This document shows, piece by piece, positions 5,660-30,462 of a stretch of 42,376 nt of DNA; position 1 is the first letter of the stretch; every line of letters begins with the position of its first letter. Under the pieces are notes generated by a model. That model was not told the DNA's origin, did no database searches, and was given only the letters and a program-made list of their open reading frames with translations. The DNA lies in the IMG/VR virus record IMGVR_UViG_2778261452_000001; one strand, written 5' to 3'. The position numbers and the translations under genes are program-made. The DNA comes from a virus (Duplodnaviria > Heunggongvirae > Uroviricota > Caudoviricetes).

Positions 5660-6573
5660 CCAGAATCACTGAAGAGCGTATATCAGAGACTATTTCCCGT
5701 ATCGAAATGTATGGTCACGGTGCTGGATATACGGCAGATGAAGTATTGGCACTTGCCCAAATGGCTTTGGCGGCTTGCAAAGATGATAAAAAAATGAAGC
5801 TTATCGACTTGTTAGTGAAGGAGCTGCCTAAGTGCGGCGGGTGGCCTGATGGAATGAGTTATTGTTACCTACCCAGTGTCAATTTAATGGCACCATGCGC
5901 GACTTTTGCTTTTGGCTCAGACCACAAAAAAGACACTTTCTTTGGGCGCAATTTTTGTTGTGAGATTGAGCTTCCAATTGGTGACCTTGATAGCGATGAA
6001 TACCAGTCAGTTGTCACTCGCGAACAATACGAATCAGCTCTCATAGCGTCGCAGAAAGTCGAGTTCAATGGTGATGAACTTGAAAGTAAGACTTACAGGT
6101 TGGATTTTGGGCAATGGCTGGAACAGCAACGCGGGAAAATCGATGTGGACTGTGGTTGTGTGTCCACTGAAACATTCATGCACTGGCTGCGGGTAGCTTA
6201 CGAGGCTGGCAACTATCCGGACATTCCGGATAGTTCGGTGCCAGCGAAAGGAAAGGGCGTCCCCGGTGAACGTATCCGAATTAAGCCGCATGTTTATCGC
6301 GAACTGGTTAACCGCCTCCACGATACAGCGGTCAAGTGTGCTGGCACCCAGCAATTACGAGAAAGAATTAGCCGTGTTTTGGGCGACGTTATTACGCCAG
6401 ATCATCATAAACAAGCCGAGAAAAGTGACCTAGAAAGGTGTCACCTTGAGGCGGCATTAAACATTAAGCCGGGGCATACGCTTGGCATTATCGATGCTCT
6501 GTTGGTTCATAAGATGGCCATGGCTTTATTGCCGTTGGTGGATGCTGGCGATACAAGCGAGGGTGAAGTATGA
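5641..6573 (+). CDS. hypothetical protein
   Basis: 310-aa ORF overlapping upstream gene end; no recognisable motif. Confidence 0.55.
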   Translation: MAQKEMTRITEERISETISRIEMYGHGAGYTADEVLALAQMALAACKDDKKMKLIDLLVKELPKCGGWPDGMSYCYLPSVNLMAPCATFAFGSDHKKDTFFGRNFCCEIELPIGDLDSDEYQSVVTREQYESALIASQKVEFNGDELESKTYRLDFGQWLEQQRGKIDVDCGCVSTETFMHWLRVAYEAGNYPDIPDSSVPAKGKGVPGERIRIKPHVYRELVNRLHDTAVKCAGTQQLRERISRVLGDVITPDHHKQAEKSDLERCHLEAALNIKPGHTLGIIDALLVHKMAMALLPLVDAGDTSEGEV

Positions 6574-6983: not shown

Positions 6984-7006
6984 TTAATGTTTCACTGAAA
7001 CATTAA
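6984..7006. repeat. perfect 23-bp palindrome TTAATGTTTCA-C-TGAAACATTAA
   Basis: Read directly: 11-bp arms are exact reverse complements around one central base; overlaps stop codon of the minus-strand small ORF 7004..7140; AAGGAG lies 7 nt upstream of an ATG inside it. Confidence 0.5.
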
Positions 7007-18446: not shown

Positions 18447-18634
18447 TAAATATATTATTTTTAATCTGAAATAATTGACAACTGACAAGTGACTTCAGTC
18501 AGAATCATCACATGCCCGGTACGGATGGATCCCTTTTCAAATATTCCATGGACGGCACAGTCTGAGTACCGGGCGCTACCTTTTGTTGTATTGCTAAGCC
18601 GCCGCTGGTGGCTTTTCTTTTTTGTAGGGGCGCT

Positions 18635-19276
18635 ATGGATAAGAAAATATGCGTTGTTTCGATGAGCGTCGGCAAACCGGCGTCAATGACTGCTGCATGG
18701 ATCAACAACGAGCTGATAATGGCTGAGCGGACCAGCTACCCTGAACGCCGCCGCGATATGGAACTCCAGTTGCTGCGCGAATTGCGTGAGAAAGAGGAAA
18801 AAGGTTTTATCGTGCTGGTGGAAGAGGAAAACAGCTTTATTACTGGTCGAGTTGGCCAGCGTGTAAGGTTGCGCGATCCCTTCATGAACGGCAGGCCGGT
18901 ACTGATTGAAGCAATGCAGATTTACAAGGAGCTGGAACGCCAGAAAGCGATCAAGTTACCGCGCAAGGAATCCGGCAAATACATCCTCCACCAAAGCATC
19001 TTCGATTCCGAACACGATAAAAAAGGCGATGAATTTTTCAACATCAACTGGAGCGAAATAACGACAGAGCATGTTCTGACGTTACTATGTTGCTTTGCGA
19101 CGGAATACAACAACGTTGCCAGCGCCGACTACATCAGGGCAATGGCTGGAGAAGTTGAAGCCCGCCAGGAACCATCGTTACTAAGTCCACTTATTAACAT
19201 AATTCTGGGTACCCAGACACTGGAACAAAAAAAAGTGCCGAAAGGGGTATTAACAGGCAAGCATAATTATTTCTAA
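18635..19276 (+). CDS. mat: Mat-position protein (particle maturation), by synteny
   Basis: ATG at 18635 (MDKKICVV...), 213 aa; follows ref as P1 mat does. Confidence 0.5.
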   Translation: MDKKICVVSMSVGKPASMTAAWINNELIMAERTSYPERRRDMELQLLRELREKEEKGFIVLVEEENSFITGRVGQRVRLRDPFMNGRPVLIEAMQIYKELERQKAIKLPRKESGKYILHQSIFDSEHDKKGDEFFNINWSEITTEHVLTLLCCFATEYNNVASADYIRAMAGEVEARQEPSLLSPLINIILGTQTLEQKKVPKGVLTGKHNYF

Positions 19277-19441
19277 TAATTTATAGTGGGGACTTTTGAT
19301 GGTGTAAAACCCCATGAATTATTATTTTTTAGTTTTTTGATTCTATTTTTTTTGCATTACCCGTCATAAAAATGAGCTTGCTTACATAATAGAAAATTAT
19401 TTTATCAACACTATTACAACAAACGATTATCACTGATAACA

Positions 19442-19467
19442 TGAGTCCTTTGAAAACAAAGGACTCA
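19442..19467 (+). promoter_or_regulatory. perfect 11-bp inverted repeat TGAGTCCTTTG-AAAA-CAAAGGACTCA containing the only SD-like AGGA before the GNAT start
   Basis: Read directly; 3' arm ends 7 nt before ATG 19475; AGGA at 19460-19463 lies inside the stem. Confidence 0.55.
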
Positions 19468-19474
19468 CCATACT

Positions 19475-20083
19475 ATGTCTAATACCTCGGCAAATGAAAT
19501 TGTACCGCACTTACCGCTAATTTTCGAAAATGAAGCTAATGGGATTCTTCAGGATCTGGCCTATACTCCATCGCTTATGGGGTTGATGATGTTCCCGACA
19601 GAAGAGGAGCTGAAAGCAGCGAGAAGCTACATAATTAACGTTTTTGAAGAGTGTTACCGAGCCGGTCATTTGCGCATTATGGGCTTTACTAATGAAGAAA
19701 ACTTGTTCGGATACGCCTTAATCTTCGGACATCCATCGGGAAATTTTCCGTTGTACTGTCATAAAATATATGTATATGAGCAATATCGTGGTAATGGACT
19801 TGGAAGTAATATACTGGCAGAAATACTTGCATTTCCAAATGAGGTCGCTTTGATTTGCCAGTCTGATTTGGTTCCTTTTTATGAATCAGCCGGAATGCAC
19901 TTTAAAGGAAATTACACCACTCCATCAGTCGCCAATTTCAAAAAAACTCGCGGCATGTATGAGGGGCTTTGTTTGATGAGCACTGAAAAAAATGCAAACT
20001 CTAATGGTGTACCTATATTCATGCTGAACGATAACGATATTGATAACATCATACAGGCTATCGCATCATCGGCACCACGATAA
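19475..20083 (+). CDS. GNAT-family N-acetyltransferase (substrate unknown), cargo gene
   Basis: 202-aa ORF; acetyl-CoA binding motif VYEQYRGNGLGSNILAEI (Q/R-x-x-G-x-G/A); AT-rich relative to flanks; sits where P1 has res/mod. Confidence 0.65.
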   Translation: MSNTSANEIVPHLPLIFENEANGILQDLAYTPSLMGLMMFPTEEELKAARSYIINVFEECYRAGHLRIMGFTNEENLFGYALIFGHPSGNFPLYCHKIYVYEQYRGNGLGSNILAEILAFPNEVALICQSDLVPFYESAGMHFKGNYTTPSVANFKKTRGMYEGLCLMSTEKNANSNGVPIFMLNDNDIDNIIQAIASSAPR

Positions 20084-20138
20084 TATTAATAATTCATCTC
20101 GCCGCAGGAACTACAAACCAGTTGATTGTTTGTGAAAC

Positions 20139-20156
20139 GCCCGGTGCAAACCGGGC
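20139..20156 (-). terminator. stem-loop GCCCGG-TGCAAA-CCGGGC between convergent GNAT gene and lxc
   Basis: 6-7 bp GC stem read directly; modest U content downstream on minus strand; weak. Confidence 0.35.
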
Positions 20157-20165
20157 CAACAAAAC

Positions 20166-20414
20166 TCAATCAGCATTGAGAAGCAATGCATTATCTATGA
20201 TGATCTGCTCCCATTCTTCGAATGCCCGGTCGCGGACGCCCTGGGGAACACTGTTTGTTTTGAAATCGACGACTGTACGCCATTTCCCGTCCGGACGGTA
20301 CATGCGCAGAGCTTTACTTCCCCCTTCCCTGCGCACCTCAACGTTATGCTTGTCAGCAAACTCTTGTAATGCTCGTAGCGTCCCATGCTTTACTGTGTAG
20401 TATCGCTTTTTCAA
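20166..20414 (-). CDS. lxc: Lxc/Bof, C1 co-repressor modulator
   Basis: 82-aa basic product; size and position (downstream of ulx-darB on minus strand) match P1 lxc/bof. Confidence 0.65.
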   Translation of the reverse strand: MKKRYYTVKHGTLRALQEFADKHNVEVRREGGSKALRMYRPDGKWRTVVDFKTNSVPQGVRDRAFEEWEQIIIDNALLLNAD

Positions 20415-30449: not shown

Positions 30450-30462
30450 CCACCAAAAATAA

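Follow-up and report, generated by a model that had tools for sequence, protein, structure and literature searches.

The gene for a GNAT-family N-acetyltransferase in a P1-like phage-plasmid is preceded by a perfect palindrome that, with a probability of about 0.5, acts as a fold-back insulator against transcriptional read-through, the acetyltransferase itself being translated from the transcripts of its own promoter. We rate this reading no higher because both the start site of these transcripts and the read-through are predictions. In the following, the window refers to the whole stretch of 42,376 nucleotides that was analysed. If the reading is correct, the palindrome would be a clear non-transposon example of translational insulation, in which a horizontally acquired phage-plasmid cargo gene is expressed independently of the phage programme around it. 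The finding opens no long-standing question and is of modest general interest; it bears on the variable slot between mat and lxc of P1-like plasmids and on the role of the GNAT protein.

The palindrome occupies positions 19442-19467 and is composed of a left (5') arm, TGAGTCCTTTG (19442-19452, plus strand), an AAAA loop (19453-19456, plus strand) and a right (3') arm, CAAAGGACTCA (19457-19467, plus strand). In agreement with the initial annotation, it is a perfect 11-bp inverted repeat with arms that are 100% complementary and a loop of 4 nt. The only sequence of the gene that resembles a Shine-Dalgarno (SD) motif, AAGGA at 19459-19463, is located inside the 3' arm. Its AGGA (19460-19463) is separated by 11 nt from the ATG at 19475, as had been reported, and the spacer in between, CTCACCATACT (19464-19474), is free of further purine-rich SD-like runs. 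In Markov-1 shuffles of the 42-kb window, perfect stems of 11 bp or more with loops of 3-8 nt occurred 0.09 times per shuffle, with 15 of 200 shuffles containing any; the real window contains three, namely the GNAT palindrome, a loxP site at 15795-15828 and a hairpin at 6211-6235.

The fold of the palindrome is highly stable. The calculated energy of the stem is -17.4 kcal/mol at 30 °C, -15.5 kcal/mol at 37 °C, -14.1 kcal/mol at 42 °C and still -9.1 kcal/mol at 60 °C, and the RNA fold has a z-score of -4.8 for the 26-mer and of -5.3 in an 80-nt context. SD occlusion was computed for RNAs starting at 19330, 19400 and 19440. In these RNAs, which carry both arms, the probability of the SD being unpaired is 0.00 at 30, 37 and 42 °C, which confirms the sequestration that had been proposed. 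In RNAs starting at 19449-19452 the hairpin is gone and the folding energy is reduced to -3.9 kcal/mol. A thermosensor, which had been suggested as one function of such a structure, was rejected on the stability of the stem across 25-70 °C: between 37 and 42 °C the stem loses merely 1.4 kcal/mol and the SD is always paired. Likewise, no Rfam family was matched at E ≤1 in the region 19000-20400. A stem of this stability is unsuited to a thermosensor and would hence be a constitutive lock. RNA thermometers such as ROSE and fourU, and SD-sequestering leaders in general, share with the palindrome an SD that is paired in a hairpin a few nucleotides before the AUG. The palindrome differs in its 11 perfect Watson-Crick pairs, free of mismatches and G-U pairs, and in that its 5' arm is probably not part of the GNAT gene's own mRNA.

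This own mRNA is predicted to start at about 19449-19452, without the left arm and with a free SD, based on a conserved extended -10 element that ends at 19442 and an UP element that is in register with it. The extended -10 element, TGaTAACAT (19434-19442, plus strand), consists of a TG at 19434-19435 and a hexamer at 19437-19442, the last T of which is the first base of the palindrome. In an alignment of 10 upstream sequences the TG and the bases T, A, A, A and T of the hexamer are invariant, the base between TG and hexamer varies (A, C or T) and the flanks have diverged. In each of the 14 homologous loci whose protein is at least 56% identical (14/14), the pattern TGnTAnnnT occurs exactly once in the 110 nt upstream of the gene, 27-34 nt before the ATG. 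Together with the AGG of the SD, TG-n-TAA(C/T)AT forms the sole invariant non-coding blocks of the upstream alignment, in which the ATG is also conserved. An invariant TG followed by a variable spacer base and TA...T is the extended -10 signature of sigma-70 promoters.

Further upstream, an A/T tract resembles an UP element (19391-19412, plus strand; core AAAATTATTTTATCAA at 19393-19408). The core pattern AAAWWTWTTTTNNNAA has its sole match in the window, on either strand, at 19393-19408, compared to 0.02 expected matches. The UP-element consensus and the -57 register were reportedly described by Estrem et al. in 1998. Placing the AAA of the UP element at -57 sets +1 at 19450, and counting from the -10 hexamer sets it at 19449. 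PWM scoring also identified a weak -35-like hexamer, TTACAA (19414-19419, plus strand), 17 nt upstream of the -10 hexamer, which agrees with the -35 at 3 of its 6 bases and has no conserved equivalent in other lineages. We infer a transcription start at 19449-19452 on the plus strand, 7-10 nt downstream of the -10 hexamer. The first purine among these bases, G19452, is homologous to the R in the CTTT-R-AAAA of other lineages. A start within the left arm would mean that the hairpin forms solely in RNAs entering from upstream.

Promoter scans gave divided results. In three lineages the TGaTAACAT promoter had the top rank in a crude position-weight scan, and in the window it came second. A stricter consensus scan omits it, owing to its poor -35, and lists positions 19296-19325 (TTGATG-18-TATTAT), the only forward-strand match of that scan in the spacer between mat and the GNAT gene; transcripts from there would carry the whole hairpin. 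Another candidate promoter, TTCGCT-18-AAAAAT, seen in some relatives, was discarded, as it is not conserved in the type to which the window belongs (lineage A) and in the P1-like plasmids whose protein is 85% identical (lineage B), and its start would lie within the SD. The initial annotation had proposed translational control through RNA structure and had set a start downstream of the hairpin against it. Masking of the SD holds for RNAs in which both arms are present, but the gene's own mRNA is predicted to lack the 5' arm, and the comparative evidence places the start downstream of that arm.

RNAs with both arms could originate from the phage genes upstream. The P1-like character of the window is evident from a Cre-type recombinase (16247-17278), which carries the annotation of site-specific integrase in both phage P1 and related plasmids, from a perfect 13-8-13 loxP site upstream of cre (15795-15828; ATAACTTCGTATA-GCATACAT-TATACGAAGTTAT) and from the genes ref, mat, lxc (20166-20414, minus strand), ulx and darB (2255 aa), which are all present in the order of the annotated phage P1 record. 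In the slot between mat and lxc, P1 (record L004, 3544-9750) carries res and mod, its type III restriction-modification genes; the same slot of the window holds the single GNAT gene on the plus strand. The mat gene (18608-19276, plus strand), an open reading frame that matches phrog_1837 and is annotated as 'maturation control protein' in homologous plasmids, is located directly upstream of the GNAT gene, is co-directional with it and ends 198 nt before it. No credible small ORF or antitoxin was found in this 198-nt spacer.

A pattern search identified the P1 late promoter LPmat at 18487-18505 on the plus strand (Lpa box AAGTGACTT, N4, CAGAAT), identical to the annotated LPmat of phage P1. The pattern, taken from the P1 annotation, comprises the 9-bp box AAGTGACTT, 4 nt and TANNNT; with up to 2 mismatches it yields 10 sites in the window, compared to 2.5 expected. 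Judged by their sequence, the five matches with a single mismatch (11486, 18487 and 27667 on the plus strand, 31386 and 41035 on the minus strand) mark Lpa-dependent late promoters, LPmat and LPpro among them. The asymmetric 17-bp C1 operator site, ATTGCTCTAATAAATTT, has 8 matches in the window at up to 3 mismatches, including those at 15652-15668, 15735-15751 and 17771; none lies between 17788 and 27581.

Between mat and the GNAT gene, a terminator-like hairpin (19274-19338, plus strand) begins at the mat stop codon, with a stem at 19274-19324 that is followed by T6-AG-T6. With -13.4 kcal/mol and a z-score of -1.3 it is missing from a consensus terminator scan. The hairpin is probably an imperfect first barrier to read-through, and it may already stop most of it. 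With mat and LPmat on the same strand and a terminator of moderate strength, co-directional entry from upstream is possible, the read-through itself being a prediction.

According to the mechanism that we propose, the palindrome would extend across the start of a sigma-70 promoter belonging to the GNAT gene itself, made up of UP element, weak -35 and extended -10. The left arm would serve as promoter and discriminator DNA (approximately -7 to +3), so that the anti-SD sequence would be present solely in RNAs started upstream, while the right arm with the SD would belong to the 23-26-nt leader of an own mRNA that is hairpin-free and normally translated. Transcripts of mat, initiated at the C1-controlled Pmat or the Lpa-dependent LPmat, would carry both arms whenever they escape the weak terminator. 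In such read-through RNAs the stem of -15.5 kcal/mol would lock the SD and leave the GNAT gene untranslated. The cargo gene would thereby be kept under its own promoter and remain blind to phage transcription.

Protection from read-through by fold-back inhibition was reportedly described for IS10 by Davis, Simons and Kleckner in 1985 and for IS50 by Krebs, Schulz and Reznikoff. The GNAT palindrome resembles these elements and IS200 in that its 3' arm covers the ribosome-binding site and in that the resident promoter, here by prediction, starts inside or after the 5' arm, so that solely read-through RNAs fold and become untranslatable. IS200 combines a terminator for impinging transcripts with a stem-loop that occludes the ribosome-binding site (PMC3196728). 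The GNAT hairpin is likewise paired with a terminator-like hairpin upstream. Unlike in the insertion sequences, the gene concerned is not a transposase but a phage-plasmid cargo acetyltransferase, the case is known from sequence alone, and the 5' arm doubles as the discriminator of a promoter whose start site is predicted. The design is thus already known from insertion sequences, and the GNAT palindrome is most likely a further example of it.

To what extent selection may have shaped the palindrome can be judged from the homologous loci. The GNAT cassette is present in 22 PLSDB plasmid records (21 from Escherichia, one from Salmonella), of which those examined are P1-like and 19 are at least 97.4% identical over the full query. 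It is also found on plasmids of 19 complete E. coli genomes, and a megablast search of a phage collection gave no match. Diverged relatives comprise lineage B and the loci L001 and L002 from other P1-like plasmids; relatives with 56-76% identity come from Serratia, Klebsiella, Providencia, Enterobacter and metagenomic contigs. In the aligned upstream regions the palindrome hairpin is confined to lineage A, which is near-clonal. All copies that bear it are at least 97% identical, and covariation of the arms is therefore not assessable. At the nucleotide level, lineages A and B are homologous from 19428 onwards, a few bases before the TG, hence the shared mobile unit consists of -10, leader and gene. 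A metagenome scan for intermediate forms of the leader, with a loose pattern, returned 120 stretches, none of which encodes the GNAT protein.

Two lineages without the palindrome show another form of SD pairing. In lineage B, where the gene is located directly behind mat, CTCCTTC at the -35 position is the exact complement of the SD sequence GAAGGAG, and the SD is predicted to be sequestered in the 80-nt RNA (MFE -16 to -18.6 kcal/mol, z -2.6 to -2.9). In L026, a distant P1-like element, CUCCCUGUU overlaps the TG and pairs with AGCAGGGAG on the SD side, again with predicted sequestration in the 80-nt RNA (MFE -17 kcal/mol, z -2.3). In all three, lineage A, lineage B and L026, the anti-SD lies 5' of the predicted start, at three different places. 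Loci with a longer native upstream region show no comparable SD pairing (z of about 0). The anti-SD sequences of lineage B and L026 are individually marginal, with p of about 0.1 for the 7-nt complement and 0.05-0.1 for the duplex energy, and the lineages compared are few and not independent; the convergent pattern across the three P1-type lineages is suggestive. A tentative generalization, to which we give somewhat less credence than to the insulation of the GNAT gene itself, would be that cargo ('moron') genes behind phage genes repeatedly evolve an anti-SD in their own promoter DNA, here three times, and thereby stay silent on late transcripts. If so, there would have been selection against acetyltransferase production during lytic growth.

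The restriction of the palindrome to one near-clonal lineage would also fit a neutral by-product, which we regard as unlikely. An ancestral quasi-palindrome would have been 'corrected' by intramolecular template switching, and few RNAs would contain both arms given the terminator behind mat. Relatives do carry an imperfect CAGGCTTTR...CGAAGGACTC, the Providencia locus L030 already has the right-arm sequence AAGGACTC, and a single GAGTCC copy templated from GGACTC would explain three clustered differences in the left arm. However, both arms have changed (G to A in CGAAGG, T to A at 19467) and the loop was shortened, which requires more than a single event. The neutral reading also has to accommodate the two other lineages directly behind a co-directional gene, which reached complementarity to the SD via different sequences.

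A DNA operator, the alternative function named in the initial annotation, appears improbable. A host- or plasmid-encoded dimeric repressor would bind the 26-bp palindrome and block initiation or promoter escape. The position is plausible, since the perfect dyad symmetry extends from about -7 to +19 and overlaps the predicted start, and another, small palindrome, TTATCA-C-TGATAA, lies next to it and includes the TG. As in operators of the lacO and tetO type, the centre of symmetry falls a few bases past the predicted +1; in contrast to these, there is no cognate regulator and no auxiliary or repeated site, and conservation is limited to one lineage. Within the window the half-site is no more frequent than expected by chance, and neither a second copy nor a similar pair of half-sites was found there or in the complete 91-kb plasmid NZ_CP122833.1 of the same type, in which the palindrome is single-copy. 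It is absent from all other lineages with the same promoter and gene, no candidate regulator gene is adjacent in the element, and natural operators are rarely perfect 11+11 repeats. The palindrome also shares its P1-type genome with genuine regulatory sites, such as LPmat at 18487 nearby, but matches neither the late-promoter pattern AAGTGACTT-N4-TANNNT nor the C1 operator ATTGCTCTAATAAATTT.

Similarly doubtful is control of the GNAT gene's own mRNA, in which the transcript would start upstream, at 19296-19325 or by co-transcription with mat, and an sRNA, a protein or helicase, or processing would open or remove the 5' arm. The consensus scan favours the 19296-19325 promoter and SD occlusion is complete in such RNAs, and the SD pairing in lineage B and L026 could mean that masking was selected in all transcripts. 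On the other hand, the stem is too stable for opening by temperature and matches no Rfam family, and 11 bp are short for RNase III. Upstream initiation would leave the invariant TG-n-TAAYAT and the in-register UP element unexplained. Moreover, the anti-SD is always found 5' of the predicted start, in three places in three lineages, and masking of the SD is absent from most homologous loci. If fold-back insulation is the correct reading, annotators should check the 5' arm against the gene's own start site before calling an SD-masking hairpin a riboregulator.

Other identities of the palindrome were rejected. An intrinsic terminator would require a U-run, and the palindrome is followed by CCATACTATG on the plus strand and TGTTATCAGT on the minus strand and is absent from the terminator scan. 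The Lpa late-promoter search gave no match with up to 2 mismatches near 19400-19480, though it recovered LPmat and LPpro; a look-alike with 6 of 9 Lpa box positions, AAAGGACTC-ACCA-TACTAT, would place the transcription start beyond the ATG. No C1 operator match is located at the palindrome, and the sites of Fur, CRP, LexA, IscR and cix/hix did not fit by eye when compared with their consensus sequences.

The protected gene would be a stand-alone cargo gene (19475-20083, plus strand) with a CDS of 609 nt that encodes 202 amino acids. Its start at ATG 19475 is assigned on the basis of the N-termini of 18 homologues, which align there, of the identical 609-nt CDS annotated by RefSeq, and of PDB entry 9s30_A, titled 'GNAT family N-acetyltransferase', whose residues 31-232 match residues 1-202 of the protein over the full length and with the same sequence (E = 8.7e-137). 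The protein matches Pfam PF13673 and PF00583 as well as phrog_10454, a family with the function given as not known. Its AlphaFold model (pLDDT 88) has a generic GNAT fold, and a fold search returned matches limited to generic GNAT, polyamine and arylalkylamine acetyltransferases. PADLOC and NCBIfam gave no match for the protein, and a literature search for it, for 9S30 and for WP_000072647 found no paper. Genes neighbouring the homologues encode ThsB-TIR and ParE (L030), AbiTii (L156), a NACHT protein (L022) and phage lysis proteins (L028). Together with the location in the slot between mat and lxc, this neighbourhood suggests that the GNAT gene is cargo of a defence or counter-defence island.

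The cassette match of plasmid NZ_KX518745.1, which comes from a pig farm, covers 19277-19760 and ends inside the GNAT gene. Two places in this plasmid match, which suggests that its copy of the gene is interrupted. A second exact TGATAACAT is located at 20041-20049, inside the GNAT coding region at its 3' end; the count of two in the whole window is compatible with chance (1.27 expected).

The small palindrome next to the main one, TTATCA-C-TGATAA at 19427-19439, is also perfect and reaches across the TG into the first bases of the -10 hexamer. The right half coincides with the conserved promoter element, and the left half is specific to lineage A (CTATCG in lineage B). The small palindrome resembles the core of tetO, TATCAnTGATA. 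At the non-P1 loci L005 (about 2908-2916), L006, L020, L022, L024 and L030 a different short inverted repeat is shared, CCTGGCAGG or a variant of it, which is perfect in L020 (ATCCT-AGC-AGGAT) and absent from the window. Between its end and the -10 hexamer lie 44 nt, which places it at about -60, a position at which an activator might bind. Elsewhere in the window, other perfect hairpins of 9-11 bp with loops of 3-4 nt are located at 6211-6235, 6984-7006, 30461-30482 and 34041-34064. The first of these, AACTATCCGGA-CAT-TCCGGATAGTT with 11 bp, is as rare by chance as the GNAT palindrome.
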